A stretch of DNA of 64,000 nucleotides from Takakia lepidozioides (lineage: Eukaryota; Plantae; Bryophyta): NCBI GenBank assembly GCA_030704615.1, contig CM060731.1:47988001-48052000 (forward strand), given 5' to 3'. The translations under genes and the position numbers were made by a program. Below, piece by piece: positions 3,958 through 63,280 of this stretch (the stretch's first letter is position 1; every line of letters begins with the position of its first letter). The notes under the pieces are model-generated. The model was not told the origin of the DNA and did not search any database. It saw nothing but the letters and a program-made list of their open reading frames with translations.

Positions 3958-4518
3958 TTGGATAGGACAGGCCTGCATCAACTTCATGGTGGGCTTCATT
4001 TAACTCCCGTAGGAGGGTACATGTACGTAACACCACCAATAGTGCTTGCCAAAGCTCCAAGTGGACCCGGAAGAGGCCATGGACTTGGATCTATGGATGA
4101 TATCGCCGAGTGTCTTGCTAAGCACGAAAATGATGAGGCAATGATGCTTCAGCAGACCGTCAATGGGAACGGCCCTTCAGCAGGGGACTTCACTGCGGAT
4201 TATGACGATGACGACGACGACGAAGATGAACACATAGACATTGATGGGGAAGGTGAGGAGATGGAGGTACATGCAGAGGATGATTTGCAATGGACAGGGG
4301 CAAGTATGGAAATCATTGAAATGCATTCAATGGAGTTTGTTATCGCAGGAGAAACATGTCCAACAACAAACGAACGATGCACTGTTTGCCAAGACTATCC
4401 AGTAGAGGGCGAGTCAGTCCGTATTCTCAGTGAGTGCGGCCATTCCTTTCACTCTATATGCATTGAAGGGTGGCTGCTTCGAAACGGGTCATGCCTTGTT
4501 TGCCGCAATAGGATCTGA
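3958..4518 (+). CDS. RING-H2 (C3H2C3) finger protein with acidic tract, putative E3 ligase; intronless, inside transposon DNA; start codon uncertain
   Basis: CTVC-x15[10 protein letters not shown]10-CLVC has all 8 ligands; [11 protein letters not shown] tract upstream. Confidence 0.7.
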
Positions 4519-14379: not shown

Positions 14380-16815
14380 TCAGTCTACCTCAAAGAGGTT
14401 TGCCTCTGCAATCAAGTCCTCATTCTCATCTAAGATGACTTCTTCCCTATCCAAAAACTCTTTCATGGAAGTACTAAAGCAACCAACTCTAGCATCATTT
14501 GGCCAATTATTGACTACACTCACAAGCATATCAAGGTTTTCAATATTTAACCTGCACCGTCTCAAGTTTGTTATGACACCTGCAATACTAAAAACCCTCT
14601 CAGCTTCAATCTGAGATCCAACTATGCCCAAAATTAGCCGTGCCAAAAATCCCACATACGGAAAGAGAGATTCGTGTTCTTTCCACCATTTCAAAGGAGC
14701 CACGCACTCACCTTCATTTATCTTCATCCTTCTGAAATGTGATAGTTGTTCTCTCACCACTGTCAATGTCATGTCTTCATTGTGGTCATGCACACCAAAT
14801 AAGGACATCTCGTCCATTGTGGCAGTGGGCTGTGATTGGGCCGAAGTATCCGGATGTAAGACCTTGAAACACTTTACCAAAAGAGGCTCTAACACCATAC
14901 TATCATATTGGGACACAATATGCAAAGCACGCTCTTTGCCCACATATTGTGATACCAATGACAACCCCTTGTAACGTGGGTCAAACATAAGCGCGAGCAT
15001 ATTGTGAGCTTTGCGCGATTGAAACCCTTCCAAAAAAGAAAGAAATGGTTCCAAGACATATACCACCTCTCGAGCCATCCGCCATTCCAACAATGTCAAC
15101 TCTGTTGAGAAATCCCCCATACAATGATCCACAGTTGCAGCCCCCCTAGCACTACTTCCTCGCATGCGAATTGTTGTGGCAATGGCTGCATTAAGAGCAT
15201 CGGACAACAACCAAAATCCCCCAGATTGATTCATAATGCACTCATGAACCACAGGCCCTAGAACTGTAGAAATTGATTGGGCAATGGCCCACACTTGTGG
15301 ACTTGGTATGCGAGATTGCAGTGCCAATGAGGTTTGCCTAGAGTAACAAGTGATTATGGCTTGCCTAAACTCCAAAGTCTCTTGGAAGAGGATCACCTTG
15401 GAAGCAAACCGTGTCTTCACCGGAGTCTTCAGTTTGCGGGGATGAATGCCGCTGTCCACACATGCCTTTGCCCATTCTTGTCTCCCTTTGCCACTTTTTT
15501 TGGTCCAAGTAATGGTTTTTTGCAACTCTGATTGGGCATTTTTTATAGAAACCGATCTCATATCTGCGCATACTTTTGCATCATTTGTTGCATACTGGCA
15601 ACACTTGGACATTGCATGCCCAAAACAGCTACCCACAAATGGAGAATCCAACCCCAAACACGCACATGAGACCACCGAATTCAAAGCATTGGTCAAAGTG
15701 GCCAAGTTACCTCCCTCATCTTTGACGTAAGCAATAATGCGAGTATTGAGGCCATACTTCACAAGAAGATTGTTGACTTGATGTGCCATGGCAGCCCCAG
15801 ATGTGTCAGGTGTCTCAAACATGTCAAGAGTCACATGACATTGCTCCCACTGTTCATTAATAAAGTGCGCTATGATGACAAAAGTGTCAGTTCCCCCTCT
15901 TGACATCCACAAATCAAAACTCACGGAGCAAGTAGCACAACTTTGAAGAGATGGGGACATGTAGCGCTCTTTCGTCTTCTCTGCCAAGATTGGAATGGCC
16001 TCATTCACAAATGTCCGTCGAGAAGGGAAAACAATCCGAGGATTTTGCCTCAACACCATCCTTCTTAGCCAAGGGGATTCTACCAAAGACAGTGGAACCA
16101 ACTCCTTTGCAATGAATAAGACTAAATCCTCATTGAACTGCTTCTGTTGATCATCATTTTGGTTGTATGGAGTGGAGCTCCTAAAAAAAGAAGCTATGTT
16201 TCCAGGAGTGGGGCCGGGCCTCTTTTTGGCTGGCCTACGGGCCTTATCAGGTCCAAGATTTTCCCTCTCAATCCACCTACGCAAAACAATGTCATGTTCT
16301 TGATCCACATGCTTTCGAAGGGCAGAGATACCATTGGTTTTATTATAGGTCACAATGCCCTTCTTGCTTTCAGGAGTGACACCAACAGGATGACATAGAA
16401 CACACCTCATTTGTTGTGGATTTGTTATGTCCACTGGAGCAGAGTCTTTTGTTGCATAGAATGCCCATGTCGAAGCAGTGCGATTGTGGGGCTTCCAAAA
16501 ATCCCGTTGTTTGTCAAGTACTGGGAGCTGCGCCTCCACATCCAACACCGTGTGTGATGGCGAAACTGTGGAAGATGACATTGCAGCCAAGGCTTGATGA
16601 GCTGATGTAAATGAGGCTTCATGATGAGCATCCTCTGCAACATGGCACTCCACCAAAGCTCTCTCATTATCAACATTCATGTCAAGAACAACTTCCCTTT
16701 CTAGTTCATCGAAAATATTGGGCTCCATGACATAAAAAGCTTGTGGAACAACTCCTATGTAAAAACAATGCAAACAAAGAATCCAAAAGGCATTTAATAA
16801 TTGTGCACAACTCAT
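14380..16815 (-). CDS. hAT transposase with BED finger and C-terminal dimerisation domain; true start may be ~16728 or a spliced upstream exon
   Basis: Uninterrupted 811-aa ORF: BED finger (WAFY..CVLC..H..EH), SFDLW (D), KDEGGN (D), CFGH, KTRFAS, PLKWWK, EAERVFS (E). Confidence 0.95.
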   Translation of the reverse strand: MSCAQLLNAFWILCLHCFYIGVVPQAFYVMEPNIFDELEREVVLDMNVDNERALVECHVAEDAHHEASFTSAHQALAAMSSSTVSPSHTVLDVEAQLPVLDKQRDFWKPHNRTASTWAFYATKDSAPVDITNPQQMRCVLCHPVGVTPESKKGIVTYNKTNGISALRKHVDQEHDIVLRRWIERENLGPDKARRPAKKRPGPTPGNIASFFRSSTPYNQNDDQQKQFNEDLVLFIAKELVPLSLVESPWLRRMVLRQNPRIVFPSRRTFVNEAIPILAEKTKERYMSPSLQSCATCSVSFDLWMSRGGTDTFVIIAHFINEQWEQCHVTLDMFETPDTSGAAMAHQVNNLLVKYGLNTRIIAYVKDEGGNLATLTNALNSVVSCACLGLDSPFVGSCFGHAMSKCCQYATNDAKVCADMRSVSIKNAQSELQKTITWTKKSGKGRQEWAKACVDSGIHPRKLKTPVKTRFASKVILFQETLEFRQAIITCYSRQTSLALQSRIPSPQVWAIAQSISTVLGPVVHECIMNQSGGFWLLSDALNAAIATTIRMRGSSARGAATVDHCMGDFSTELTLLEWRMAREVVYVLEPFLSFLEGFQSRKAHNMLALMFDPRYKGLSLVSQYVGKERALHIVSQYDSMVLEPLLVKCFKVLHPDTSAQSQPTATMDEMSLFGVHDHNEDMTLTVVREQLSHFRRMKINEGECVAPLKWWKEHESLFPYVGFLARLILGIVGSQIEAERVFSIAGVITNLRRCRLNIENLDMLVSVVNNWPNDARVGCFSTSMKEFLDREEVILDENEDLIAEANLFEVD

Positions 16816-18719
16816 ATATTTACAACTAAAAATGTAAACAACTAAAAAATAAAGCTCAATGAAAGGGAGTTACAGGCGGGTAATGGTGGCTGGTTGGCAG
16901 GTCCCTCCCTACTTTGGACTCCCTCCCTCTCATGCAGAATCTGCTATAACAGAAGCCAAAGGGGCTATCTCATCAACCCCCAATTGTATCAAGAATTAAA
17001 AAATTTAAAGAAAGGGAAGATACTTACCAGTGATGATCAATGTGGGCTGGTTGGCGGGCCCCTCTTTGCTTGTGCTCCCTCCAATATAAAATCTACCATA
17101 GTGGAGCAAGGGCTATCAGCCCCTTGGTATATCATCAAAGAAAACAGGAAAAAAAAAAAAAAAAAAAAGAATGATGATCAATGATTACCATGGACCAAGG
17201 GGCCTGGTTGCAGGTGGGCCCTCCTTGCTCGTCCTCCTAAACTTGTGCACCACATGCCATAGCAGAAAAGGAGGAAGCTGATTAGCTTCATGGTGAACTA
17301 AAGCTAAAAACAGTAAAATAACCAAAAGTGGTGGATGCTTACCAACGTCACTAACTCTACTTGCTACAGCATTGACATCCACTCGATTGCTTAGATCATT
17401 CTCTTTGAAAAGCCCTCTTTAGTAGCTGAACAACACTTGGAGACGACTGGATGACTAAATCACTGACAACCAAGACCAGGTTGACTTTCAAGTGAAGACA
17501 GCCAGAATGCAGTGCCACGTGGAGTAGCCAGAAACTATGAATGAGAGAGCCCCTGAAGGAGAGGATGGAAGAGACGGGGGGATGGCTGCTCACATACCTC
17601 CTCTCGCCAGTCAACATTGTTCAAGATTCCCTGACACACAGCGAAAAGAGGAACACCCTCGTACAAAACCTGCATAAGCACCTTATTCAGCTCCACCTGC
17701 AGCTATCCTACCATCCCACAATACAACTTCTTGGAAATGAACAGTGCGGAGACCCCTCACAACAGGGTGAAATCAATTCTGCCAATACAATAACCCACAG
17801 AATGGTGAACAAAAGAAAAGGGGGTTACCTCACTCGCTGCAAAACCTGGGTAAATCTGGAAGGAGCTCACTGAGTGCCCGTGGTTCAAACACATTTCCCG
17901 AAAGTATGTGTGCACCTGCCACATATACAGGAACAGTCAGGCGCCGAGGTTCTGTATAAATCTTTGTTGCACGATGAACACATTGATCATGGCAATAGAC
18001 ACTGAGGCAAGGAAGCAACCTACTGTCATTACGCCCCAACCAACTTGCTATCCATTATGTGCTGCAAAAGTACAGATTGGTCATACAAAGCTAGCCTGGC
18101 TGTCATCCAGATTGTACAACTAAGCACCGTACAAGAGAGGGGCAGAAGCTGACCTCTTTCTGGGTTAATTCTTCTCGGTTGGTCTGAATTCATCTAGATT
18201 ATGTAGCTAGCACAGAAGCGAAGAAGTGGCAAATTTGTTGACCAACTACAGCGCGAGGTGCAAACCTGCAGAATCTATCTCACTGTACAACCGATTTGAT
18301 CTTCGGGGAGCAGCAGCAGTTGTTGGTCTATTTCTTCGCTGCTCCAATATATTGTCCAGGTGACTCGATGTGGGCCATTCTGCACTTGCGCTGTCTGAGT
18401 CAATACACTTCTTGCTGCTTGCTGCTCGCTCTAGATAAGCAAATTACTCATAGGGCCCTCGTTCTGAACAGCACATGGGTAAGCGCATTGATCTTTCGTG
18501 TTATGATGCAGGGGCATGCTCTCCGAGGTGGGATTAATCAGAACAGGAAGGTGAAGAGGGACAGGGAGGGGGTTCTGGAAGGCTAAGCTGCAGCATCAAC
18601 TTGCACTGGCCTATTAACCAGGATTAGCCATGCCAGACACAGACCCTGCCTGCAGGGGGCCTTTCCCTCAGAGAGGCGTACCTCACGCTGGTGAAGCCAC
18701 GAGAGAAACAAGAGATTGT

Positions 18720-23850: not shown

Positions 23851-25329
23851 GGGGTTTGTTTTTTATGAGCCATGCGTTTTCGAACCTACCCCAAAGCGAA
23901 CCCGAAGCCAGATTCCCGGTTCGGAAGAGGCTCGGGATATTAGCAAACACTAGAAGAGAAACCGGCTTTTTCCACGGCTTTTTCCACACTTTTTGCTGTG
24001 GAATCAGCCGCAGTCCACACCTGCCGTGGGTGTAAGGAACGACTAGTGCTTTCGGACACCCCGTGGACGGCCTGGCTCTCGGGTGGCCCTATGGAAAAGT
24101 CCACGGGTGGCTTTTTCCACGGGAGGCTTTTTCCATGGATGGGCTTTTTTCACGGGGTGCATGGTGACATGGCCACTGACATGGCCAATGGCATAGCTGA
24201 CATGGTAGAGTGTGAAAAAGGCCAGTGTGGCATGTTTCACGGCGGATTTCACACCTTGAACAAGCCACTATGCGACACGTGTCATATTTCACACCTTCGA
24301 CAAGTTACTATGCAACACATGTTCGTTCCTGTGTGGTGGTACATATTAATTAATTAATTATTTACTTTCCAATATTAAGTTTGAATATTAATGGATTTAA
24401 TTTATTGTTATTATTATTATTATTATGGAAAAATGGACAGTGGCCTAGATGAGAACATTATTAAATAACAAAATATTGAAATTATGTTTTTAGAAATTAT
24501 ATTTATTCGCTCAGATACCAAAACACACCCTTTGCAGGGAAGGAGAGTTTGCCTTAGTGTCTATGCTGAGTTGCGTCTCCTACTCTCTGTAATCTAATAG
24601 ACATTCACCTGTTTCCCTCGGTTGTCCCACCCTTGACTGCGGTCAGAAAAGCATTCAATCCACAGCTTCTCCTCATCTTTGTTACATGTTTCTAGATATT
24701 TTCCTATTGTCATTTTGGCAGTATCATGTCAAAATCACTCCAAACTATGTACCATCTACCCATGCAGGTTTCTTGTAGCTAACCCTCACACAGGGAATCA
24801 TAAAAATCTGGAGCTTGAAATCTGGCTCTCTTGGATGACACTCTATCCCTGCTCCTTCAGCATCCATGCCTCTGCACAGATCATGCATACATCCTTGCAT
24901 TGTTGTTAGCAGCTGACAATAGCAGCCTAGATTTGTTCCAGCAAACACCCAACTCAACTTATCACACCAGTTCCTATTCTCAATTGCATCTACTACTCTG
25001 TAATCCAAAGGCATTTACCTTCCAAGACGGTTGTCCCAACATTGACTGGGGTCAGAAAAGTATTCATTCCACAGCTTCTCATCTCTGTTACCTATTTCTG
25101 GATACTTTCCTATTGTCACTTTGGCAATATCATGTCAAAGTCACTCCAAACTATCAAAGGTTCACTCAACCAGCTAACTTGCAGAATTCTTAAAACATGA
25201 AAATTTAGGGAGATTCTGATAAGAGGGGAAAACAGAGTGAAATGGGTTGAAGAAGGTGCCTTTATTAGCATTGCCAGAGTTTATCAATTGTGCCGCTGCT
25301 GCTGCGACTTCCAGTTGACCATCTACCCA

Positions 25330-28300
25330 TGCAGGTTTCTTGGAGCTATTTTTCCACGGGGAATCACCCCTTCCTGCATCATTGCTCATATGTCTCCAAA
25401 GCCTCCATCCGCGCCCTTGCTGTGCATATCCTGCAATCATCGCACTCCACAACACCACATCTCGTTCAGCCATACTGTCAAACACTTCCTTTGCATCCTC
25501 GATGCACCCACATTCGGCATACATGCAATCCACCAGGGCAGTGTTCAGAATGACATTGGGTACAATTCCAGATTTGACGATGTCACCATGGACCTCTTTG
25601 CCCTTTTCCAGAGCTCCCAGGCTTGCACATGCATTACAAACAAATGTGATGTGGTTGGGTTTCACCCCTTCGCGCAACAGTTGCTCATAGGTCTCCAAGG
25701 CATTCCTACCACACCCATGTTAAATCCTGCCAACATTATATTCAACGTGATCAAAGTTCGTTAAGGCATTCCGTTGAACACTCGGTGTGCATTCATGATG
25801 CTCCTGCACTTAATATACATGTTCACAAGGGGGTTGAGGAGAAAAACACTTGGTGTGAATCCACTTTGGATATGTGACTGAAATGCTCCTTGGTTTAAAG
25901 GTTGTAGAGCCTCTTTCAGTCTGCCTGCCTCACAAAGCATCTTCACATGCCCAGAAGAGCAAGAAGAAGCATTATGGACTCCCTCTCTTGATCCTCTTTT
26001 AGAAGCTGTGGGATGATTGAGGTGCCTGATTTAAATCAGGGCTGCCAGGCCTGCAATGCACACAAACATGATGTGGCCGGGCTGAACCCCTTCCACCATC
26101 ATTTGCTCATAGGTCTCCAAAGCCTCCATCCCACGTCCCTGCTGTGCATACCCTGCAAGCAACGCACTCCACGACACCACATCTCGTTTAGCCATAGTGT
26201 TGAACACTCCCTTTGCATCCTCGATGCACCCACATTTTGCATACATGTCCACTAGGGTATTGTTCAAAATGACATTTGGTACAATTCCAGCTCTGAAGGT
26301 GTCACCATGGACCTCCTTCCCCTTTTCCAGAGCTGCCAGGGCAGTGTATGGAATGATATTAGGTACAATTCTAGCTTTGATGATATCCCCATGCACCTCT
26401 TTGCCCTTCTCCAGGGCTGTCAGGCCTGCAATGCATACAAACATGATGTGGCCGGGCTGAACCCCTTCCCCCATCATTTGCTCATAGGTCTCCAAGGCCT
26501 CCATCCCACGTCCCTGCTATGCATACCCTGCAAGCATCGCACTCCATGACACCACATCTCGTTCAGCCATAGTGTTGAACATTCCCTTTGCATCCCCGAT
26601 GCACCCACATTTTGCCTACTTGTCCACTAGGGTATTGTTCAAAATGACATTTGGTACAATTCCAGCTCTGAAGGTGTCACCATGGACCTCCTTCCCCTTT
26701 TCCAGAGCTGCTAGGGCAGTGTTTCGAATGACATTAGGTACAATTCCAGCTTTGATGATATCCCCATGCACCTCTTTGCCCTTCTCCAGGGCTGCCAGGC
26801 CTGCAATGCATACAAACATAATGTGGCTGGGCTGGACCCCTTCCCTCATCATTTGCTCATAGGTCTCCAAAGCCTCCATCCCACGTCCCTGCTGTGCATA
26901 CCCTGCAAGCATCGCACTCCACGACACCACATCTCGTTCAGCCATAGTGTTGAACACTCCCTTTGCATCCCCGATGCACCCACATTTTGCATACATGTCC
27001 ACTAGGGTATTGTTCATAATGACATTTGGTACAATTCCAGCTCTGAAGATGTCACCATGGACCTCCTTCCCCTTTTCCAGAGCTGCCAGGGCAGTGTATG
27101 GAATGACATTAGGTACAATTCTAGCTTTGATGATATCCCCATGCACCTCTTTACCCTTCTCCAGGGCTGCCAGGCCTACAATGATGTGGCTAGGCTGGAC
27201 CCCTTCCCCCATCATTTGCTCATAGGTCTCCAAAGCCTCTATCCCACGTCCCTGATGTGCATACCCTGCAAGCATCGCACTCCATGACACCACATCTCGT
27301 TCAGCCATAATGTTGAACACTCCCTTTGCATCCTCGATGCACCCACATTTTGCATACATATCCACTAGGGTATTGTTCAAAATGACATTTGGCACAATTC
27401 CAGCTCTGAAGGTGTCACCATGGACCTCCTTCCCCTTTTCCAGAGCTACCAGGGCAGTACAATTCCAGCTTTGATGATATCCCCATGCACCTCTTTGCCC
27501 TTCTCCAGGGCTGCCAGGCCTGCAATGCATACAAACATGATGTGGCCGGGCTGAACCCCTTCCCCCATCAGTTGCTCATAGGTCTCCAAAGCCTCCATCC
27601 CATGTCCCTGCTTTGCATACCCTGCAAGCATCGCACTCCACGACACCACATCTCGTTCAGCCATAGTGTTGAACACTCCCTTTGCATCCTCGATGCACCC
27701 ACATTTTGCATACATGTCCACCAGGGTATTGTTCAAAATGACATTTGGTACAATTCCAGCTTTGAAGGTGTCACCATGGAACTGCCAGGGCAATGTTTCG
27801 AATGACATTAGGTACAATTCCAGCTTTGATGATATCCCCATGCACCTCTTTGCCCTTCTCCAGGGCTGCCAGGCCTGCAATGCATACAAACATAATGTGG
27901 CTGGGCTGGACCCCTTCCCTCATCATTTGCTCATAGGTCTCCAAAGCCTCCATCCCACGTCCCTGCTGTGCATACCCTGCAAGCATCGCACTCCACGACA
28001 CCACATCTCGTTCAGCCATAGTGTTGAACACTCCCTTTGCATCCCCGATGCACCCACATTTTGCATACATGTCCACTAGGGTATTGTTCATAATGACATT
28101 TGGTACAATTCCAGCTCTGAAGATGTCACCACGGACCTCCTTCCCCTTTTCCAGAGCTGCCAGGGCAGTGTTTAGAATGACATTAGGTACAATTCCATGC
28201 ACCTCTTTGCCCTTCTCAAGGGTTGCCAGGCTTGCACAAGCATTGTAATGCACACAAACATGATGTGAGAGGGCAAAACAGGTTGAAATAGGTCAAAGAA

Positions 28301-32919: not shown

Positions 32920-45250
<12,331 letters not shown>

Positions 45251-45379
45251 GAGGTCCAGACACACAACAAACTATATACCTCTCGGGATGCAATAGGGTG
45301 GTGCAGTGCACCTCTCGGTGCAGTAGCTGATGCAGTAGGTGTAGTGCACTGCACCTCATCGAAGAAGGGTTGGTGCTCG

Positions 45380-45436: not shown

Positions 45437-45604
45437 CTTCCCAAGAGAATGACACGACCCATTTATCAGAGTGAAATATATTCCTTGTTGGGTCGTTGGG
45501 TCGGCAAAAGTGCGTTTGACTGATGGGATTGGCATCGACGCAGTGTCGAAATGTGGAGATGGGCCATGCCCTTCTGAGGACGGAGCTCTTGGAGTAACCT
45601 GGCT

Positions 45605-47806
45605 ATGGCGCCATCAGTGGTGTCCACCGTCATGGCTCCTGTGGGGTCTCTCCCGCTTGTCAATCCCTTGGCCCCGTTTCTCTCGTTTCTGTATCCTCAC
45701 GCTTCTGTTGGTTCAGGATCGCAGTGCCAGGGTTTTGGCAGGGTTTTTGCACCAAGCTGCCGAGGCAAGTCGCATCATTGGGGAATATATGTGCAGAGTA
45801 AGTTTTCAGGTAGATTTGAGGGCGAGGTAGGTTCCTCTCTTTCCCGTCTGGATCTCTGCCACGGTGCTTCTCTGTCGAGCATACCTTTCATCAATTTTCG
45901 CGCTCGACCAAATGTGGTTGTAGAAGAGTGTTCGCCTGTGAACGAGAGGCTTACATTCGTATCCGGTGAGCTTTTGAAGGATTTCGAGGGAGCTGGAGAG
46001 GAAACTTTGCTCAAGAATGAGGTCCATGTGGGAAGGGAAAGTGGCCAAGCATTTGCAGGGGACGATAGGATGGTTCCCCTGATTTCAGAGGCAGATTCAG
46101 CTGCACAAAGTGCTCATGGCCACAGCTCGACAAGGGAGGGATTACTTACAGGGTTTGATCGAGCATACCTTTCCACCTCAACATCCGAGGTCAGTGAGGG
46201 CTTAACAGAAGACAGATTGACTGAGGGGTCGGACCGGCAGCGAGAGAGCATAGACGAAGATCACAAGTATAAGTATAGTACACTTGGCAGTGAGAGTTAT
46301 GGTGCAGAAAGAGATGGTGTATACGATCAAACGCCCCTTCCTCCCCGCTCAAACCATACACATGCAGCTGGTCCACAAGGTTCAAACGAAGTATCTGAGA
46401 TACCAACTAAGCGACCAGAGAGTAGGGCAGAAATTGAAGATACTGGCCAGAGGTCTACCTTCACCTCCACTGCCAGGGACGGTGAGGATGATCGAGAGTT
46501 CAAGGATCCCATCATTGGGGAGGCAGAGGGACAGACGATTGCAAATTTGGAAACCACAGACAGATCTGTCAGTGCCCAGCAAACTAGAAGGGAAACATTA
46601 AGCCGGGAAGGTATGCGATGGAATATGCTGCTAAGTACAGAAGCCCTGGAGGATGCACACTTATCACGGGCCTCAAGCGTTACTGACGCGCACGTGCTGC
46701 GAAGGAAAGGCCGTCTGAAAGAGCAAGATGGGCTTATTGAGTTCATCGTATCCATGCACACCACCCACTCAGCAGTTCAAGTAATGGAGAAGATGGAGAG
46801 ATGGGTTGGGGAGCACTTTGAGGATCCCTTGCGAAGCACACTAAGCAGATTGATCCCTTCCGTTGGTCGTTTCTATACGCCATTGCCTCTGGTGCGTGCG
46901 CTACAGGAGTACGATGAATTTGCGTCGCTCTCACGTAGGCGATATGTGCCTCCCAATTTTGCTGAAATTCGCCATGTCCTAAACATTGCACAAGTACATG
47001 CCATTGCAGAGAAGCTGTCGCTACTTACCTTCGATGCAGATGGGACACTATATGCAGACGGGCACCACATCGAAGGAGACAACAAGATGATAGGTCACAT
47101 CATCAAGCTCATGCAACAGAGTGTCCATGTTGCCATTGTCACTGCTGCTGGGTATCCAGGAAATGCTGCTCGCTACGAGGACCGGTTGGCAGGATTGTTG
47201 GCAGCATTTGAAGGTCTGAAGTTGCCATCTAGCATCACTAGGCTTTTCCATGTGATGGGGGGTGAATGCAATTATCTTCTCCATGTCAACCCCCAGTATC
47301 GACTCGAATTTGTGCCTGATGAACTATGGAAACCTCGGTACATGCAAGAATGGGCAGAGGAAGAGGTGTGCAAGCTGTTGGATGACGCAGAGTTTGCATT
47401 GCGGTCTGCTGCAGCGCGCCTACGACTGCCCATAGAACTTGTGCGGAAGCCTCGGGCTGTTGGTGCAGTCCCCAAAGAGCCCACCATATATGAGGTTCTG
47501 GAGGAGATGGCATTGACAGTCCAAGTGCATCTGGTTGGTGCCAACCTCCCTTTCTGTGCCTTCAATGGTGGCAATGATGTATTTGTCGATGTGGGAAACA
47601 AATCAGTGGGTCTTGGGGCTTTGATGAGATATCTTGGAAAACGACCACAGGAGACCTTGCATGTGGGAGACCGCTTTACCCTGAGTGGCAACGACTCTGC
47701 AACGCGGTCTAAATGCTCAATTTTGTGGGTTGCAAACCCTGAAGAAACTGCCTTTTTCACACGTCTTTTGCTGAAGGATATTCGGCTGGCTCGTCTCAAC
47801 CCGTAA
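45605..47806 (+). CDS. ISN1: IMP-specific 5'-nucleotidase (HAD superfamily) with long N-terminal extension; intronless
   Basis: LRRKGRLKEQDGLIEFI, SRRRYVPPNFAEIRHVLN, HAD motif I TFDADGTLY, VTAAGYP, MGGECNYL, FNGGNDVFVDVGNKS, HVGDRF..GND. Confidence 0.93.
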   Translation: MAPSVVSTVMAPVGSLPLVNPLAPFLSFLYPHASVGSGSQCQGFGRVFAPSCRGKSHHWGIYVQSKFSGRFEGEVGSSLSRLDLCHGASLSSIPFINFRARPNVVVEECSPVNERLTFVSGELLKDFEGAGEETLLKNEVHVGRESGQAFAGDDRMVPLISEADSAAQSAHGHSSTREGLLTGFDRAYLSTSTSEVSEGLTEDRLTEGSDRQRESIDEDHKYKYSTLGSESYGAERDGVYDQTPLPPRSNHTHAAGPQGSNEVSEIPTKRPESRAEIEDTGQRSTFTSTARDGEDDREFKDPIIGEAEGQTIANLETTDRSVSAQQTRRETLSREGMRWNMLLSTEALEDAHLSRASSVTDAHVLRRKGRLKEQDGLIEFIVSMHTTHSAVQVMEKMERWVGEHFEDPLRSTLSRLIPSVGRFYTPLPLVRALQEYDEFASLSRRRYVPPNFAEIRHVLNIAQVHAIAEKLSLLTFDADGTLYADGHHIEGDNKMIGHIIKLMQQSVHVAIVTAAGYPGNAARYEDRLAGLLAAFEGLKLPSSITRLFHVMGGECNYLLHVNPQYRLEFVPDELWKPRYMQEWAEEEVCKLLDDAEFALRSAAARLRLPIELVRKPRAVGAVPKEPTIYEVLEEMALTVQVHLVGANLPFCAFNGGNDVFVDVGNKSVGLGALMRYLGKRPQETLHVGDRFTLSGNDSATRSKCSILWVANPEETAFFTRLLLKDIRLARLNP

Positions 47807-48582: not shown

Positions 48583-49980
48583 CTATCTCCTTGCCCTCTT
48601 GCGAGAGTGTTTTCTTTTGTCCACCTTTGCCCCCTTTTTCCTCTTCCCCAACTTTATCATCAGTCTTTTCTCCACCATCATCTGCATTTTGTTCTGCTGT
48701 ATAGCTGCTTGAAGAAGCTCAGACCCGCCTTCAAGCCCAAGTAGTCTGACCAAACCATGGGGGGGAACAAAAGCAGGGATCCCTTCTGAAGGAGCATAAG
48801 AACGCACCTTCTTACAGAGCTTCTTTGCAATTCTTAGCTCTTCAGGATTTTCTGAGTGTATGAGCTCCCTCAACTCTCCACATGTGAATGCTTTAACATG
48901 AATTCCTTTGACGCGGCCACTGCGCGACACAAGCAGACCTCCATTTGGGTCAGGTAGCCGCTCGTATGTTGCGACTCCTTGCATCCATTCAGAAAAGCAT
49001 ACTAATCCAGGGATGATTGTCGGAAGATCAGAAGTTGTCTGAGATGTGGATGCCCTGAATGGCCACATTTTAGCTGGCCTAGCCGGTATGATTAAGTTCC
49101 TCAAAACCTGTGGAGTCTCATGTTTCAAGGGATCTTTTGGGAAAAAGAAGCAGTACACGGAATCTCCTTCTCTTGCATCTGTTGCCAGGTCCAAGTATGA
49201 TGTAGGTAGCATTGGTTTCACCAAGGGCCGAGTGGGCTCCAACACACAAACATCTACATCCTCGTCCATAATCTTGACTTTAGCTTCGAAAGCCAGCCTG
49301 CCTCTGTAGTAATTTGGGTAGACAACATGAATTACATAGCGCTCTGGATTCTCAACCGCACTGTACACACAATGCAGAGCAGCAATGGATTCACCGTGGA
49401 CATCCATGAGTCCCACTGTACCTACGCATCTCTCTGTAGCCGTTGGAGACAAAACTTCCTCTGGATTTGACATGTCAGAGATATACACACGACCAACATG
49501 GGCTGTAACTTTTTCAAAAGCCGCCTTCATCCACTTGGCCCAATGCAGATCGTCTGCAGGTTCATCTTCAGAAAATAGGTCACCCGCACCACCTGCATTT
49601 TAAGCTTTGCATGTCAGATCTTTGACAGCAACTCATGTCTGAAGTCCCCTACTGAAGTAACTCTAGTACTAGGTAGCGATTCCACTTCAGCGATCTTTCA
49701 AACAGACTCCAAGTTTTTACCACTTTTGGGTTTCAACGAAGACTTCGTATGTCTGACCTAAGATTGGTGAGGCCCGCACAGTGATCCTGCCCCCGTTGAT
49801 CTCGGCATTTTCATCGGGGGAGAAAAAATGATCTCCTCGTAGAACCTCCACACACCAATCCTCTGGAACTCCGCAATATTGCACTTTCTTCTTCAATTCA
49901 TTAAAAGTAGGTGCTTCCTTGTTCCATTCAATTTTCTTCTTAGCCTTCTGCTGGGGTAGCTGGACCTCGATGACCAGCAT
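48583..49980 (-). CDS. Ubl-like domain + trypsin-like PSEUDOprotease + basic tail (paralog A); complement(join(48583..49592,49758..49980)), 410 aa
   Basis: Phase-1 intron G|GTCAGA..TGCAG|GT joins the two ORFs in frame; AALHC (His), DVDVCVL (Asp), but LPDPNGG at the nucleophile motif (Asn codon 48943-48945); tail KLGKRKKGAKVDKRKHSRKRARR. Confidence 0.8.
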
Positions 49981-51876
49981 TCTTCCGAATCCGGACCCTC
50001 GCTGCATCAAGAGCACAAAAGTTCATGGATAAATTTGGCCATGCACTACACAGTCTCACATCTAAGAATCACTGAACACAATTTGATCCAAATTTCCTTT
50101 GAATGATTCTGTGGCGGGCAACTCAGCTATGTACATGTTCATATGGTGGAATAGGCTGCAAATTGTGCAAAGCCGGCTATCTCACCTTACTTCTTTGGAG
50201 AACCTTCGGGATCGGTGAAGTGTAGCTGCGCCTTCAGTTCATTGCCCGGCCTCTGAAACGCTGAGGCAGAATTACGAAAATTGGAGATCGAATGGAATGA
50301 GCGATTTGTCTCCTGCAGTTTAGCATCACCTCTCTCTTTCTTCGAGCTCTCCTCCTCTCAGGAGAAGGGGCCAGAACCAATGAATTGAATTAATCGATAT
50401 CCCATCAGTTCAGTCTACTAGCTCGGTTGGGTCAGTTGTTCAGTTGAGTAGAATACAATGTGACATCTGAGCAGGTGCATTAACAAGGATATGCAGCCTC
50501 ATTCTCACTAAAGTACTCACATGCTCATTTTAATAAGTAGCTATAGGTGGGCATCATCAGAACCCACTAAAGAGAGCTCATATGCCTGGAGACTGATATC
50601 TATGATTTTGAAAGTAGGAAAGAACTTGATGTGATATGAGCGGTTGGATATAAACCAGCTTGGAAGGAAGAGACTGCAGTGCAAAACTCACAAATATGCC
50701 AAAGAAACTAAGTCGAACAGATGTTGACCAGTATTACGTACATCTGGATTCTAGAGTATGCTTCTAATCCCGATAGACGAGAAGTGTTCGACGCAGAGAT
50801 GGGAAAGATGCACCAGTCTTTTTTTGAAGGTCAGATGATGTTTATGAGCGAAGAGACACAAGACGGTTGGTGTTCTCAAATTCTAATTCATACGGTCCGC
50901 TTTGCTGCATCATTCATTCACGTACATCCCACTGAACTTCGAAAGTCTTGAGTAATAAGCTCTCAAGAAGGTTCAAACATTGAATCGTCATCATAGTCCT
51001 GATGAGGTGGTGAAGAGATTATATCGCACGGCCCACTCAATCTCCGATGCAAACATTTACACCTGGACTCAGCTCATTGAAAGAGGGCGTAGAAATGTGA
51101 CCCACGAGGCAAGATTCGAACCCCAGCCATCCAGCAGAACATACTGTATGCATGCCCGAGAAACTACGATCGGCCGCGTACCCTTGCACAAAAGTGCCTA
51201 TGCATGATCTCGAAGCCTCCTTTCGGGATCTTGATTGTTGTCTGTTCTGATCTGATTGTTGTGTCACGTGACGATTTATGTGCATACATGTGCAGGAACC
51301 TGAAATGTGCTAGTAATTTCTTTGGTGGTGAGAGGATCGACCTGACTCTCATCTAAGTGTTGTTTTTATCTTAGAGGAGACCGAGGAATCGATTGGAAGT
51401 GTTCAAGAAGAGACACTTGGCCTTGATCTTGATCTTATAGTTGCTATGTGAAGCTACAGGACGAATCCTAGCATCAAATGTAATCTCTACCGAATATGAA
51501 CCTAGGGTTGACTCTGATTTATAATTCGAAGCACATGTCGGAGTCTGATCAGAAACAGGAATGAAATCAAAAGCCTCATAGAATCCACAGTGGCCCTGAT
51601 CGTGTTGTTTCATATCTTAGAGAATTGACAATTATACCTCTAGACTGTTCACAATCACAAATCACTATGAGAGTCGACCTCTCTTGCAGGTAGGAATGCA
51701 ATCAGAGGTAGAGAAAATTTGATTCCCGTGGGTAGCTTGCACATGAAAATTTGAGGAGTACTATGGAGCACGCAGTATGTATGTGAACTGCAATTAATAC
51801 TGAATATTGCTACAGAAACTTCCTGCCGATTCTCGACTCGTTCTCGAATTCCAGATTTCTATTGTCTGCAGTAATT

Positions 51877-53413
51877 ATGTTAGAACTAGAAGTACGACTG
51901 CCACGGGAGACTAGAAAGATCGAATGGGACAAGGCATCTCCAACTTTTTGTGAGGTCAAGCAAAGACTTGAAAGCTGTGGAGTTGCTAAGAACTGGTGTG
52001 TCGAGATCTTGCGTGGGGATGAATATTTGTCACCTGACGATGATGCGCAACTTAAGAATATTAAGAAACTTATTGTTCGAGCATCGCCAATCGGTGATAG
52101 AAGACTGCTTCAACAATTCCCGTCTGCGGATTCTTCAACTGCAGACAATGAAACAGGTTCGTCCTCCTGGGCCCTTCCACTTCCGATTATCTTTTTTGAC
52201 GTGCATTCCTTTGGCAACGTAATGTAACCAAAGCTTTCCTTGGTCACAATTTGGCTCTGGCCACCACAAAGGAGTGGTATTTCTTCTTCTCACGTTGACT
52301 AGGAATGGCTGCCAGGAACTTCACTATGATCCAATACATTGATATGCTACCTTGCCAGGTGAATCCCAGGGTTCAACAACACCGGGGCCGAAACCCAACT
52401 TGGCAGAAATGTTTGAAACTGTGATCAACTATGTGGGCCGCGTGTATGTATGTGAACGTGATTGTAAGCAGGCTGATATTGTACATGTTGACAATTGCAA
52501 GGGAACTGTGGGGCTTGTGGGCTGTGGTGGCGAATCCATCGGATGTTGGCACATACTGGAGGCTGCAGTGAATAAACCAACCCAGTACAAGTTCTTCATT
52601 CAGTACCCAAATTACGCACACAATCTTGCCTTTGAAGCCCAAATCAAGGATAATCTGATTAGCTCGGACCTGGACTTGTTTGTGGCCGAGCCCATCGAAA
52701 CTTTGCCGTATGAAACTGCGCACCTCCAATGTGCGCTTGATGTCTCCCTAGCAGACACTGTCCACTGCTTTGGGTTTCCAGAGGTCGTGGACCGCGAGAT
52801 TATTTTGGGATACAAGAACAGGAAACACGAGGGTCAGATTTTCGCAGACTCTGAAGTGGAAAGAAGGCTGAAACTCCCCACCATCTTCTCTGGGCGGGTG
52901 TGTTTCAATGGATGGAAGCAAGCTGTGGCAGACTACCTGTGCTTCCCCAACTGTTCGGGAGGTATTCTTGTTGACGACTATGGTCATCTCAAAGGAGTTC
53001 ACGTTGCAGGGTTCAGAGTTGGACAGAAGCTCGACTTCCGTAACCTCAGGGTGACCAAGACCAGGGCAAAGGCACCACAAAGGATTGCCAGTAGAAAATC
53101 TAAATCACAACCCAAGCTCAATCTGCGCAGAAGCCTACAGAATCTGTATGCGGGCGTCAATTCCTTCTGCTCCGACACTGCCTGCTGCCTCAACGCCTGC
53201 AGGAATGAGGTTGCTGCTTTTGTTCCAGTCCAAATCTTTGAGGAACAGCTCGAACTTGCTCGACTCCGCTTGATCCGCTGTACAGGCAGCAAACCTTCCA
53301 GAGATAAGCCAAGAAAAAGTCGCTTACAGGAAGAGGACGATGACACCTACAAAAATCCCAAGAGAGTGCGGAGCCATAGATCCCATAATCCCTTAATCTG
53401 GTTACGATCTTGA
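51877..53413 (+). CDS. Ubl-like domain + trypsin-like serine protease + basic tail (paralog B); join(51877..52156 or ..52093,52359..53413), 444 or 423 aa
   Basis: Either phase-1 donor joins acceptor CCAG|GT in frame; GCWHIL (His), DLDLFV (Asp), VHCFGFP, FPNCSGGILVDDYGHLKGVHV (Ser codon 52955-52957); K/R-rich tail. Confidence 0.85.
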
Positions 53414-54551: not shown

Positions 54552-56375
54552 CTAATTGTCCACCTCCATGCAGCAGCACCTTGGTTCCTTGCTGACACCG
54601 CTGCCCTCCATCATTTTGCTCACGGTTGCTGTATCGTCCAGTTTGCCAGTTTCAGCATAGTCACTGGAAATGTGCTGTGGATCCCACTTTAGAAGGCATT
54701 TTGCTGCACGTTCTGCTAGCTTCACATCCCCTTGACTTCTGCAGGCACTGAGCAAGGCCCCCCACACATGTTTACCTGGTTCAATTGGCATTTTCTTTAT
54801 GAAGTCCTCTGCGTCATCCAGCCGTCCCAAACGACCAAGAAGGTCCACCATGCAGACAAAATGCTCCACTGTAGGGGTGAGGCCATGATCTTGAATCATG
54901 GTGCCAAAGTAGTGATGGCCTTCATCCACTAGGCCCACATGGCTGCAGGCAGAGAGGACAGATATAAACGTGATTCCATTTGGCTTCAAGCCTTCCTGTT
55001 GCATTTGTTCAAATAGTTGGAGGGCCTTCCTACCACCCCCATGCTGAGCATATCCTGCTATCATTGCACTCCATGAGACTATATCTCGTTGAGCCATATT
55101 ATCAAACACTTGATGTGCATCCTTCATGGCCCCGCATTTGACATACATGCTAGCCATTGCAGTTTCCAGGATGACATCTGGAGCAATTGCAGCTTTGATG
55201 ATGTCAGCATGGACCTCCTTGCCCTTTTCCAGGGCTGCCAGGCTAGCACATGCATTGAGAACACATGTGAAAGTGACCTTGTTGGGTGTCACCCCTTTGG
55301 CTATCATCCCCTCATAAAACTCCAAAGCTTCTCTGTTATACCCATGCCGAGCATATCCAGATATCATTGCATTCCACAAGACCACATTTCGTTGAGCCAT
55401 CTTGTCGAACACGTCATGCGCATCCTTCATGCTTCCACATTTGGCATACATGTCAACAAGGACAGTCTCCAAAATTGTATCTGGCAAAATTCCAGCTTTG
55501 ATAATGTCAGCATGAACCTCTTTGCCTTTTTCCAGGGCTCCCAGGCTGGCACAACCAGTGAGAATGCAGATGAACGTTACCTTGTCTGGCATCACTCTTT
55601 CCCATATCATTTGTTCATAAATCTCCACAGCCTCCCTACCATATCCATGCTGTGCATATCCTCCAATCATCACATTCCATGACACCACATTTTGTTGACC
55701 CATGTTGTTGAACACTTCACGTGCATCATGTATGCTCCCGCATTTGGCATACATGTTAGCCAGGGCAGTCTCCAGAACAATATCTGGTGCAATTCCGGCC
55801 TTGATGATGTCTGCATGGACCTCTTTGCCCTTTTCCAGGGATGACAGGCTAGCACAGGCATTGACAATGCAAACGAATGTGACCCTGTCAGGAGCTACTC
55901 CTTCACATTGCATTTGCTCGTAGATCTCAAAAGCCTCCCTACCACACCCATGCTTGGCATACCCTCCTATCATGGTATTCCAGGTAAACAAATCTCGTGT
56001 CGGCATTTTGTCGAATACTTGACATGCATCCAAGAGGCTCCCGCACTTCACATACATGTTGATGAGCGTGTTTAGGAGAAAGATGTTTGTCTTGGATCCA
56101 CTTTGGAGAATGTGGGCATGCACCTGCTTACCCTCTGCAAGGCCCTTCATCTTGATGCACTCCTGTAAGAGGTAGGCATAAGCACTGGAATCTGCCAAAT
56201 TGCCTCGGTGGTCCAAATTGTGCAAGGCCTGCTTTATTTGTCCTGCCCTACATAGTGTCCTCACATTCGAACTGGTGCCAAAAAAGTTCTTGTTGATTCC
56301 CTCTCTTGGTAAACTTTCGAAAGCAGGGGGGCGGGTGCCAAATTCAAACAACTGTCTCGGATTGAATGCTGCCAT
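54552..56375 (-). CDS. PLS-class PPR protein (organellar RNA-editing factor type), ending in a partly deleted E domain
   Basis: 607-aa ORF with P-L-S triplets, HFVCMVDLLGRLG, VWGALLSAC and KEPRCCCMEVDN*; transit-peptide-like N-terminus. Confidence 0.9.
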   Translation of the reverse strand: MAAFNPRQLFEFGTRPPAFESLPREGINKNFFGTSSNVRTLCRAGQIKQALHNLDHRGNLADSSAYAYLLQECIKMKGLAEGKQVHAHILQSGSKTNIFLLNTLINMYVKCGSLLDACQVFDKMPTRDLFTWNTMIGGYAKHGCGREAFEIYEQMQCEGVAPDRVTFVCIVNACASLSSLEKGKEVHADIIKAGIAPDIVLETALANMYAKCGSIHDAREVFNNMGQQNVVSWNVMIGGYAQHGYGREAVEIYEQMIWERVMPDKVTFICILTGCASLGALEKGKEVHADIIKAGILPDTILETVLVDMYAKCGSMKDAHDVFDKMAQRNVVLWNAMISGYARHGYNREALEFYEGMIAKGVTPNKVTFTCVLNACASLAALEKGKEVHADIIKAAIAPDVILETAMASMYVKCGAMKDAHQVFDNMAQRDIVSWSAMIAGYAQHGGGRKALQLFEQMQQEGLKPNGITFISVLSACSHVGLVDEGHHYFGTMIQDHGLTPTVEHFVCMVDLLGRLGRLDDAEDFIKKMPIEPGKHVWGALLSACRSQGDVKLAERAAKCLLKWDPQHISSDYAETGKLDDTATVSKMMEGSGVSKEPRCCCMEVDN

Positions 56376-59300
56376 CCTACAGGACTAAAGCTCTTAAGTC
56401 CAAACCTTGTACTGAAACTCAAATATATTCGTGTAAGTGCAGAGTAACTTCAGACACGCATATGAAAAGCAAATGGATAAAAGAGAAAACAAGACCATAC
56501 CCAAGGCAGAAAAAAGAGAATCTCTTTGGAGAAAACCGACAAAGCCAAGAAACCAGGCCTTCACAGGACGAGACAAAAACAGAAAAAGCAAACAATTGAA
56601 CAAGACTGCAGCCCTGTATGTTAGTCTATCCGAGTACAAAACAAGTCAACCCAGTTCTTGAATAGTCTGGCTAACAGGGCCACGACTCAAACTCACAGAA
56701 GAATATGGTTGTCTAGTAAATACTTCATGATCAGAATTCATGAGTCCTGCCTACACATGAAGTTACCAATTGTGACTGTTTCCATTAGAACCTTTCATCG
56801 TCATCCAGAATAATACCTGCTGTATTCTTGGCTTGGAGGTCCATAGTGAGCACCACTCCAAGATTGTGCTCGACCTTGAAATCTAGCAGATAGCTGGGCT
56901 CTCACCCAAGGCAGGTTTGACCAACCCTCAATCCAAAGACCCTCCCCTGTCCGTTTATGTCTACAGTTTGGTGATGGTGGGCTTGTCTGTGAAAACCACC
57001 CAAGGAAAGGTAAGTGGCATCCTTGCAAAGACTATGCTATCTTAGAGCATCCTTCAAATAATGAAGAACATCTCATGTCCTGCTAACAAGGAAGGACAAC
57101 CTAATAGCCACAGTAAGAAACCCTTTGGCGGCAATTCCATGACGAAGAAAAATATTTGATGAATCCAAACACGTGGAGCTACAATTCAGTCCACAAAACA
57201 TCATCATGCTGACCAAGTCAATATTGATACCTCTTTCACGTCCTCAATGACGAGAATCTTACCTTATGAAACCTCTTGTTCCATCTCTTGTTCCATAAGT
57301 GTGAAGGATCTGAGAAGAACTCCTGCCAGAGCCATTCCCTGCTTACTTCTTGGTCTGCATTCAAACATCACTAAAATCTTGATCTTTCGCAGCTCCTAAT
57401 TGGGCTTACTTAAGATTGCATAGACTTCCCATAAGATAGACACCCTTACACCCCCCAAAATTTCGAAAGGAATGTGTGAAAGGCAGTGCAACCAAGCTAC
57501 AGGTGTTACATTTTTCTGAGAATGGGAGTTGGATCAGCATTTCTGGCATCATGTCTACACCAGCCCTAAAATCGATGCTCAATTTCCAAGAATTGGATTA
57601 TGCGCGGGAGCTATGGTGTTCCACACCTCAATGGGTAGAAATGTGGTTGTAATGTGTGTCGGAGCCTATCGATCCCACTGTTGAAAGTGTTTTGAAAGTG
57701 TTATATACCTTCCCTCAGTTTCCCTGCAGGCTGGGGAGTTGTCACAGCCACCACTTGCAAGGCTACTGTTGGGCCCGGTAATCCCGAGTTGCATGCCCAT
57801 TTCCATTCCACAGCCTGAGCAGTTAATTCGGCCCATGCTGTCAGAAGTCCCACCCGTTCACCGCAAGCAGAAGACAGGGACTTGAGCATGGTCACTGACT
57901 GCGCTCCACAAACGCTGCCATCCCCCTAGGCTTGTTTCCACCATGCTAGAGCTTCTCTCTACCCGCCTCTTCTATATATGTAAGCTGCCATGGGGAGTGA
58001 ACAACTCGGATTCATAATTTGTTCTTTGGTTGCCAAACTGTCGTGCTTCAACCCATTTTGACGGTTGTCTCTCTGCCTCGATTCATAGAGAGATCTGTCC
58101 CTGTCCGAGATCATCCTCACATTCCACGCCTCTCCAATTACCAGGAAAGTTGAAAGTTGTATCAACTTTGCCAAAATATTCCACCTTTTTTCCTGATCTT
58201 CCCTCCTTTGGAATGAAGCTTGTTCTCTCATATCTCCATGAAGAAGCAGCTCACACTCTAACATCACCCCGTCCTGATACCCTCTCTTGGCCATCCCTCG
58301 GGAATATGCACTTGTAGGTACTTGAATCAGCCTCCTCTTTGAAAGCTACAGGATACAAAACCCGTGCTACATAGGACTCTCAATACATATGGGCCAACCA
58401 GCTTGTGTCCATGGAGCTAAACAATGAATGCCTTCCAAGCTCCTCTCAAGTCCAGATATGAACGAGCCACCCCCACACTGAGCAAAATGGAGTGTTCCCC
58501 TGCATGACCTTCCTCATTAGGTACTACAGTAGACGCAATTTGAAAAATTGGGCTTTAATAAAGTTCGATCCTTCCTGTTCACCTGGATTCCCAAACGACA
58601 CTACCGCGGCGATTGTGTATGATTGCTGGAAGTGCAATGCGATCTGCCGGAATGTACTTTTTTTTTTTGAGAACAGGGGGATTGTAGCCCTGGAAATTCT
58701 ATTAAAGTAAGGAAAAAATAACCTTACAAATAGCCATGAAGGCAGAGGAAAGAGGTACCACTCAGAGCCAATAGTTCAAAGGGAGGGGAGAGAAAAGCAG
58801 GAACCATTAAGCACAAGGATTGTGCCAAAGGGGCTGCACTAATGATCCTGCAGCTAAGATATAAGAAACTGCCTTAGAATTAGGCAGTTTTTAAAGGAAG
58901 CAGCATCAAAGCTGCAAGAAAGAACCTAAGAGATGCCACAGGAATCAGAACCAAGAGTCCAAGGCAAATGAGGCCTATGAATCAAGGATACTGCATGCAG
59001 CTACAACAGAAGCAGAGCTGGTTCTAGTCAACACCTGTCAACACACGAGCAGAAAGAAAACTACTCCGAGCAGATACAGCAATGGTTAGTACAGCTATTT
59101 TCTCAGCAGAGAAGCCATCTGTCCTTTATGACTGGGTAGCTAGACAGAATGAGGGTGACAAGGTGGTAAGATTGGTGATTCTTCATGATGGATATCTTGT
59201 GATATCTCTGTTGAGGCAGTTCAGGAAGAGCTTAACCACGAATGCCAAGAGTCTGAAGCACCAAGTAGAGAAGCAGGGGAGATGGACTACACTAAAGAAG

Positions 59301-61999: not shown

Positions 62000-63280
62000 A
62001 TTAGGAATTGAACGGCAGAATTGTTTTGTATGATTTTATAAAGAGCTATTTTTTACGATTGCATGTATAAAAAACGTATACATCCAAATATTCCTCTTCA
62101 CTTATTCCTAACTGGTGGAGTGCGCACTGGAAAAACTTTTACTTTACTTCTCATTAACCAAGGTTTGCTTCAATTTTACAATAAACATCCACAAGTGGAT
62201 CCTTTAAGAAAAAAAAACTATTTTGATGGCATATACAGGAAAAGCCGCGTTTAATATTGATGGTACCACTATACATTCTGGACTTAATATCCCTCTCAAT
62301 TATAAAGAGCTACCATCTCTGGGCTCAGAAAAAATAGATTCAATGTGTAAACCATTTGATCAAGTTCAACTTATGGTGCTAGATGAAATATCTCTTGTTG
62401 GAAGTAGAATTCTTGCTTTTGCATATCAACGGTTGAAATCAGTAAAACGAATTCATAATCATTTTTTTGGTAATTTGGACATCATTATTTGTGGCGATTT
62501 CTATCAAGCACCGCCTATACGTGACACATGGGTTTTCAAAAAACTAAATACCGGTTCAAATGCTCTAGGGCCTAATTTTTGGCATGACTGCATAAAAATG
62601 CTACAAATTGCAGAAGGTGATGCGACAATCAAACCACCAATTCATAGATATATTGAACAACTGCGAACAGCAACTCAAACCCAAGATGATCTTAATGTTC
62701 TTAATCAAGAATGTTACCGTTAATGCCCCTCCAATGATCCCACATTTCCACATTTATACTATACAAACAAAGCTATGTTAATTCATAATCAACATGCATT
62801 TCAAGAAACCCCTGGGTGTATATACATATTCAAAGCAATTGATAAACATCACGATACATGTCCATTTTTATTTTATTTTTTGGATTAACAGGGCTATTTT
62901 TAAATTGCAAGATAATACATCTAATACTGCAGGATTACATACAACAATTTATGTAAAAAACGAAATGTTAGTAGAATTATGTGCTGGAAACTATGCAACA
63001 CGATGGCCTTGTAAATGGAGCATATGGTATATTTAAACATGCTTCAATTTTATCAAATTCAATATCTTTAACATGGATACAGTTTAACAATACAAAAATA
63101 GGTTTAGAAACACGTACAAAAAATGAGCACTTGTACAACAGTGGAATAGATCCATTATGGACTCCCATAGAACCTATCTAAAAAGAAATTCAAATAGGTC
63201 CTAATACGTCTCATTTTATTACCAGAACACAATTTCCCTTTCAATTAGCTGCAGCTCGAACAATTCATCGTTCGCAGAGC
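62000..63280 (+). pseudogene. Decayed PIF1-family helicase (Helitron-type)
   Basis: LFLTGGVRTGKT, AYTGKAAFNIDGTTIHS, LDEISLVG, FGNLDIIICGDFYQAPPI and TQFPFQLAAARTIHRSQ, split by frameshifts and stops. Confidence 0.9.

Follow-up and report, generated by a model that had tools for sequence, protein, structure and literature searches.

Pairs of an enzyme and a pseudoenzyme are exemplified by caspase-8/cFLIP, ClpP/ClpR and rhomboid/iRhom; an intracellular pair built on the trypsin fold is not known to have been described from plants, and our searches found none. In animals, the nuclear serine proteases FAM111A and FAM111B are paralogs encoded adjacent to each other on one chromosome and are reported to associate (PMC9798293), and the activity of FAM111A needs dimerization via the helix leading its protease domain, with V347 and V351 as dimer-helix residues (PMC10920703). 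FAM111 is reported from animals only, carries two ubiquitin-like domains (UBLs) or none and keeps its triad in all species analysed (PMC9798293). Here a head-to-head gene pair of comparable build was characterized in 64,000 nucleotides (nt) of the moss Takakia lepidozioides (contig CM060731.1; the whole stretch analysed, hereafter the window): gene B, which encodes a predicted protease, and gene A, which encodes a conserved, catalytically dead paralog.

Gene A (minus strand) and gene B (plus strand) are divergent, with start codons at 49980 and 51877, 1,897 nt apart. Each encodes an N-terminal domain of ~72-73 amino acids (aa), followed by a trypsin/HtrA-fold domain and a basic tail, and in each a phase-1 intron separates the first domain from the rest. 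The initial annotation had proposed two divergent genes of two coding exons each, with ATGs ~1.9 kb apart and the same layout; both genes were confirmed at their positions and both models are supported, as follows.

48583..49592, minus strand: gene A coding exon 2 (N-terminal helix, trypsin-fold pseudoprotease domain and basic tail)
49374-49372, 49254-49252 and 48945-48943, minus strand: gene A catalytic-site codons for His, Asp and the Asn replacing Ser, respectively
49593..49757, minus strand: gene A phase-1 GT-AG intron, 165 nt, its donor position kept in loci L001, L003 and L005
49758..49980, minus strand: gene A coding exon 1 (~73-aa N-terminal domain, predicted ubiquitin-like (beta-grasp); ATG at 49980)
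49981..51876, strandless: shared upstream region between the divergent start codons, 1,896 nt, delimited from the sequence
51877..52156, plus strand: gene B coding exon 1 (N-terminal domain paralogous to that of A, plus a ~20-aa linker; alternative donor after 52093)
52157..52358, plus strand: gene B phase-1 GT-AG intron, 202 nt, the preferred model given ortholog linker lengths
52359..53413, plus strand: gene B coding exon 2 (N-terminal helix, trypsin-fold domain, helical insertions and basic tail with a conserved NPLIW end)
52550-52552, 52673-52675 and 52955-52957, plus strand: gene B triad codons for His, Asp and Ser, respectively

The trypsin/HtrA-like domain proposed at first sight was borne out by AlphaFold2 models of the full-length Ceratodon ortholog of A (predicted local distance difference test (pLDDT) 83.9) and of exon 2 of gene B from the window (pLDDT 75.4). 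Against Deg5, the A ortholog model reached a Z score of 17.7 (root-mean-square deviation (rmsd) 2.8; 188 residues aligned) and the B model one of 19.7 (rmsd 4.8; 188 aligned), the latter also matching DegS at Z 19.5; the Deg5/DegS matches of both models span Z 17.6-19.7, with a Foldseek E value of 7e-9. The FAM111A protease domain matched the A ortholog model at Z 13.8 and the B model at Z 16.5 (rmsd 4.6; 200 aligned). These models confirm, at the level of prediction, the two-barrel chymotrypsin fold of the trypsin (PA) clan for an A ortholog and for B. At the sequence level, Pfam Trypsin_2 matched gene B only (E 0.12, below the cut-off), and Sphagnum B falls among Trypsin_2 clusters of the ESM Atlas (0.95-0.96). 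A family profile matched 46 PDB sequences at E up to 10, with HtrA/Deg as the sole kind matched (best E 4e-4), while a B-only profile found no match among PDB sequences. The protease domain is led by a helix in each model (H87-101 in A and H14-24 in B), and the models of A and B align to residues 340-595 and 341-599 of FAM111A, respectively, its dimer helix included. No PDZ domain was found in the 13 family members scanned or in the Pfam scan of the window, a low-confidence basic tail being present instead; Deg5 itself is without a PDZ domain, so that its absence alone leaves kinship with HtrA/Deg possible.

For the comparison of catalytic residues, 143 distinct homologs of at least 200 aa were collected, near-identical cluster members being counted: 71 are A-type, 67 are B-type and 5 were left unassigned. 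Gene B carries the motif PNCSGG with His/Asp/Ser, whereas gene A carries PDPNGG (His/Asp/Asn) and CFFFP, as first noted, and the distinction extends throughout the collection. The catalytic Ser is present in 0 of the 71 A-type proteins (Asn in 50, Asp in 20 and His in 1 at the nucleophile column) versus 65 of the 67 B-type proteins, the two Ser-less ones being fragments in the alignment. His and Asp are kept in 70 of the 71 A-type proteins, the exception being one fragment, and in 65 and 64 of the 67 B-type proteins, respectively, where the remainder are gaps; the same pattern is true of the cluster representatives (22 A and 18 B). An invariant His lies in a G-x-H-V motif, at the position of the S1 His of Glu/Gln-specific enzymes (V8, 3C proteases), which hints at specificity. 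Beside this GIHV motif A has an invariant Lys and B an invariant Ala.

All named homologs are from mosses, and each of Sphagnum, Physcomitrium and Ceratodon has at least one A and at least one B (copies found: two A and one B in Physcomitrium and in Ceratodon; one A and two B in Sphagnum). The Physcomitrium genes are PHYPA_007851 for B and PHYPA_021142 and XP_073394262 for A. In a tree of 46 chosen sequences, which carried a long-branch warning on two outgroup rows, A, B and a third clade (C) were apart, with support of 89/98 and 83/96 for the A and B groups, and window A and B were each basal in a subgroup with the Physcomitrium and Ceratodon copies or their cluster representatives. Of the clusters retrieved with the exon-2 proteins, 17 were B-type (50-68% identity) and 21 were A-type (51-76%), and a joint profile gave only 18 matches among 1.84 billion representatives, namely A types, B types, clade C, fragments and two distant Trypsin_2 proteins. 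The nearest outside matches are P0122 and P0123 (E 3e-6 and 6e-4), unnamed Trypsin_2 proteins with a similar xNSSGG motif. Clade C (P0113, P0125, P0115 and P0116), with an intact triad and no basic tail (P0113 is 35% identical to B), could be an outgroup outside mosses. Four short fragments (P0118-P0121), whose residue changes resemble C-to-T converted (bisulfite) reads of A-type or C-type genes, are artefacts by inspection.

Searches further afield gave 50 pattern matches in prokaryote genomes and 59 matches in viral contigs, of which none was confirmed as a relative, and the viral fold search gave generic trypsin folds alone (9-18% identity). A metagenome scan found five A-type loci with no B on any of them, three of the five being under 3.3 kb. 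The family is listed in databases as hypothetical proteins; the 11 locus-tag matches in the literature concern other plants, and no description of the moss A/B family was found there, although Zhang et al. 2016, the primary Crinkler-RHS (CR) paper, may mention it.

That A has an intact reading frame well diverged from B had been remarked on from the start, and its evolution indicates selection. Window A compared with four moss loci gave a proportion of nonsynonymous differences (pN) of 0.22-0.24 versus a saturated synonymous proportion (pS) of 0.75-0.85, and two Sphagnum-type A loci gave a nonsynonymous-to-synonymous rate ratio (dN/dS) of 0.17. Mean core identity is 0.65 within A versus 0.66 within B, and identity between Physcomitrium and Ceratodon orthologs is 79% for A1, 80% for A2 and 80% for B. 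On these sequence comparisons (low pN against saturated pS, dN/dS of 0.17 and conservation equal to that of B), A is an old pseudoenzyme under strong purifying selection. A decaying pseudogene and an assembly error were also considered for A and were rejected in view of the Asn/Asp conserved across mosses.

Between A and B, the exon-1 domains are 51% identical (E 8e-29) and the protease exons 37% identical over 219 aa (E 3e-38); core identity is 34%, and the family profiles of the two align along 339 columns with probability 100. Relative to orthologs, gene A exon 1 is 66-72% identical to A-type exons and gene B exon 1 is 63% identical to Physcomitrium B over 93 aa. Lys and Arg make up 30% of the last 60 aa in A and 25% in B. 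Genes A and B are the sole matches to the family inside the 64-kb window.

The gene A product is 410 aa. Gene B has a single usable acceptor (52359) and a stop at 53413, and its in-frame phase-1 donors at 52094 and 52157 would give 423 and 444 aa, respectively. In orthologs, exon 1 continues about 17-20 aa beyond the SPI motif and the linkers are 36-41 aa, versus 46 or 25 aa in gene B, depending on the donor; because of this read-through and these linker lengths the later donor is favoured, and the gene B product is likely to be 444 aa, with an exon 1 of 93 aa of which ~72 aa form the folded domain. The shared region (49981..51876), which likely holds both promoters and 5′ untranslated regions, contains one 12-nt inverted pair, and no direct repeats were found when looked for there. 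Splicing of the N-terminal exons to the protease exons, as originally modelled, is supported by the kept intron position and by a linker of spliced length (29 aa) in P0035, P0197 and P0201, A orthologs from short JGI or Logan contigs that appear to be assembled spliced transcripts. Furthermore, the N-terminal domain is joined to the protease domain in 22 of 207 collected proteins, mostly genome annotations. Two sequencing runs of the source organism behave like DNA, with contigs crossing intergenic sequence and the gene B intron, and are uninformative on splicing; the pieces listed from both runs match parts of both open reading frames (ORFs), the gene A Asn codon lying outside those pieces. 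The annotated models of the Sphagnum chromosome-15 B genes (P0099 and P0092) begin without the N-terminal domain, and those of Sphagnum A start midway in it, for which loss and mis-annotation are both possible.

The N-terminal domain had been called beta-grasp from its hydrophobicity pattern. In the A ortholog model its elements (E2-7, E14-19, H27-36, E43-49, E52-54 and E66-73; pLDDT above 90) give the predicted order E-E-H-E-E-E, which is compatible with a ubiquitin-like (beta-grasp) fold. The leads from databases were weak, namely Pfam Multi_ubiq (E 0.025) in 2 of 8 members and a ubiquitin-like match in the ESM Atlas at rank 28 (score 0.85); matches to the protease domain took up the lists from the fold searches.

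From these features a course of events may be proposed. A and B would stem from the old duplication of a moss gene whose predicted product joined a ubiquitin-like domain to a trypsin fold. B, with its His-Asp-Ser triad, is a predicted intracellular protease and presumably active; the basic tails would direct A and B to the nucleus, and the N-terminal domain would mediate protein contacts. A would then act on B, most likely through a mixed dimer formed via the helix preceding the protease domain, or by capturing the same substrates. In such a dimer the dead subunit could activate or restrain B, as suggested by the FAM111A-type dimer helix of both moss models, while substrate capture is proposed because His and Asp are retained in A. 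A complex prediction for Physcomitrium B (1-400) with A1 (1-375) scored 0.00 in two runs without alignments, which is evidence neither way. On balance, we consider the chance that A regulates B or its substrates to be slightly better than even.

The pair most likely serves a developmental process confined to certain tissues, not defence, since even, slow evolution and low copy number favour a developmental role over an arms race. Ceratodon B (KC19_VG186400; P0175) bears a V tag and lies on a 110.5-Mb contig, which the tag and PMC8245031 together lead us to interpret as the male V chromosome. Both Ceratodon A genes are present in both Ceratodon assemblies, and the B cluster, with all 5 of its members examined, contains the V copy alone. 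Because Ceratodon B is V-tagged and no copy was seen in the female genome, male gamete maturation is the leading candidate process, a tentative one that is drawn from V-linkage alone and that we hold to be possible rather than probable. The most specific form of the proposal is a moss FAM111-like nuclear switch of independent origin, that is, an obligate mixed dimer in which one trypsin-fold subunit is active and the other dead, which originated as a head-to-head pair and processes chromatin proteins in sperm maturation, and whose catalytic subunit was captured by the Ceratodon V; taken as a whole it is speculative and unlikely.

Physical linkage of the two types likely recurs beyond the window, which partly upholds the expectation that paired homologs would recur. 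The longest contig measures 7,923 nt for both P0022 (A) and P0003 (B), and 22,686 nt for both P0199 (A) and P0005 (B); in the tree these proteins fall in the same subgroups as the window genes. With 76 A lengths and 79 B lengths to compare, chance would yield 0.06 coincidences at 4,830 nt or above (P about 0.002 for two), so it is likely that two other contigs hold both an A-type and a B-type gene. Shared lengths of 1,325 and 2,454 nt were dismissed as linked pairs, since a head-to-head pair would not fit in them and chance could account for them.

Several observations weigh against regulation of B by A in the form proposed. Gene B has Asn where trypsin-family enzymes usually have the oxyanion-hole Gly, so that its activity is not assured. 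In the models, the fold match to FAM111A is weaker than that to HtrA/Deg, and the leading helix aligns in HtrA/Deg too. As for recurrence of the pair, the copies found lie on different chromosomes in Sphagnum magellanicum (A on 05G; B on 08G and 15G), S. fallax (A on 05G; B on 08G) and Ceratodon (A on 5G and 1G; B on VG), and in Physcomitrium A is on contigs of 16.5 and 17.2 Mb and B on one of 20.7 Mb, placement resting on locus tags and contig sizes for the copies found only; moreover, no B is present within 10 kb upstream of a Sphagnum-type A (locus L001). As the copies found are unlinked in four named genomes, a shared promoter is not needed. An inverted duplication likely left the ancestral genes head-to-head, an arrangement kept in the window, lost in the named genomes and dispensable. 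For the male lead, a U copy of Ceratodon B may be unannotated or in another cluster, and V-linkage is weak evidence, as over 1,700 genes linked to U and V show expression across tissues (PMC8245031).

The alternative that survives best is that A and B are independent: after the inverted duplication A would have lost catalysis and taken on a binding or scaffold role with partners of its own, and the head-to-head arrangement would be a relic. The unlinked copies in the four named genomes, the 34% core identity between A and B, the many invariant residues peculiar to A and the separate variation of copy number (A:B of 2:1 in Physcomitrium and Ceratodon and 1:2 in Sphagnum) all speak for it. However, both types are retained in every named genus, linkage likely persists in the two other contigs, and the N-terminal domains are more alike than the protease domains (51 versus 37%), which suggests a common partner; we regard independence as unlikely, though it deserves serious weight.

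Less probable still, and rather improbable in our view, is the initial suggestion that the pair derives from Crinklers and serves immunity, cell death or a toxin-antidote system, with B as the killer and A as its neutraliser or as a sensor. CR proteins, which are found in land plants, include a described form that couples a ubiquitin-like header to a trypsin domain (PMC5289972); the same source records atypical CR headers, which would leave room for remote CR kinship. The head-to-head pair in the window, and P0122 and P0123 as unnamed Trypsin_2 relatives with a similar motif, fit such a module as well. Pfam includes a Crinkler model, yet a Crinkler-type Pfam family matched 0 of 8 headers at E up to 10, and no LXLFLAK-like motif is present in the header alignment. 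Moreover, 10 of 10 matches to the header belong to the A/B family (the best 7,995 candidates being scored, a search in which such a blank is weak), so that membership of the Crinkler/CR class was not sustained. An immune or selfish role fared no better: 1-2 copies per type were found per named genome, evolution is slow and even (about 80% Physcomitrium-Ceratodon identity), and a selfish toxin-antidote pair needs linkage, which the four named genomes have lost. Very improbable, finally, is that A is an unconventional enzyme in which the remaining His and Asp work with water or a different nucleophile. Although His and Asp are invariant in 70 of the 70 A-type proteins with the region present, the nucleophile position varies among Asn, Asp and His, unlike a catalytic residue, and the invariant Lys next to GIHV would likely crowd the cleft.

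The pair is flanked by ordinary genes, namely those for an MCM helicase, the ISN1 nucleotidase and a PPR protein. ISN1, an intronless gene for an IMP-specific 5′-nucleotidase (45578-47806, plus strand; Pfam E 1e-94) with a long N-terminal extension, is convergent with gene A and divergent from the multi-exon MCM helicase gene (36023-45271, minus strand; MCM_N, MCM_OB and MCM_lid matches), which resembles MCM6. A PPR gene with an E motif (54552-56384, minus strand) adjoins gene B, and a second PPR gene (25174-28292, minus strand) is broken over several frames; PPR contig depth in run X1 was ~29,000 versus ~10 elsewhere, which points to a very large PPR family. Elsewhere in the window are an uninterrupted ORF of 829 aa with a hAT transposase dimerisation domain (14380-16869, minus strand), either an active element or a domesticated gene, a PIF1-like helicase fragment, possibly of a Helitron (62208-62723, plus strand), and a RING-finger ORF (3913-4518, plus strand).

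The family was missed by Pfam and is apparently undescribed, and its dead twin has been kept since before Sphagnum split from other mosses. Its proposed workings are directly testable, as Physcomitrium, with one B and two A among the genes found, allows targeted knockouts; were the male-function lead true, B would become a candidate for the protease that remodels chromatin in moss sperm, and its gene a candidate for male limitation on a UV sex chromosome.

Compared with known systems, the moss pair departs from selfish toxin-antidote pairs in its linkage, which is present in the window and likely in two other contigs but is not tight and conserved, the copies found in four named genomes being on different chromosomes. 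It shares with the CR class an architecture listed for it, a UBL header (here predicted) plus a trypsin peptidase (PMC5289972), and differs in lacking a header match, in that the 10 header matches gave no sign of header swapping and in its low copy number and strong conservation. Like the enzyme/pseudoenzyme pairs, it has a dead paralog under selection beside a presumably active one, the difference being that in the moss pair regulation of B by A is inferred. HtrA/Deg proteins (DegS, Deg1, Deg5 and MamO) supply the best structural matches (Z 17-20) and the sole PDB sequence matches; the moss proteins differ in having no detected PDZ domain, an N-terminal folded domain in place of a targeting peptide and a Trypsin_2 match below the cut-off. 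With FAM111A and FAM111B they have in common, by prediction, a ubiquitin-like part followed by an intracellular Trypsin_2-type domain and a helix leading the protease domain, the aligned ranges covering FAM111A 340-351. They are set apart by a single predicted UBL (~73 aa), by a basic tail and by the conserved dead paralog; identity in the structural alignment is 14%, and FAM111A is absent from the 46 PDB sequences matched by the family profile at E up to 10. Because of the single UBL, the lack of a sequence match and the reported restriction of FAM111 to animals, moss A and B are built like FAM111A but are not FAM111 members. The family gives mosses a predicted intracellular protease that combines a ubiquitin-like part with a trypsin fold, a build described elsewhere for FAM111 of animals and for CR effectors.

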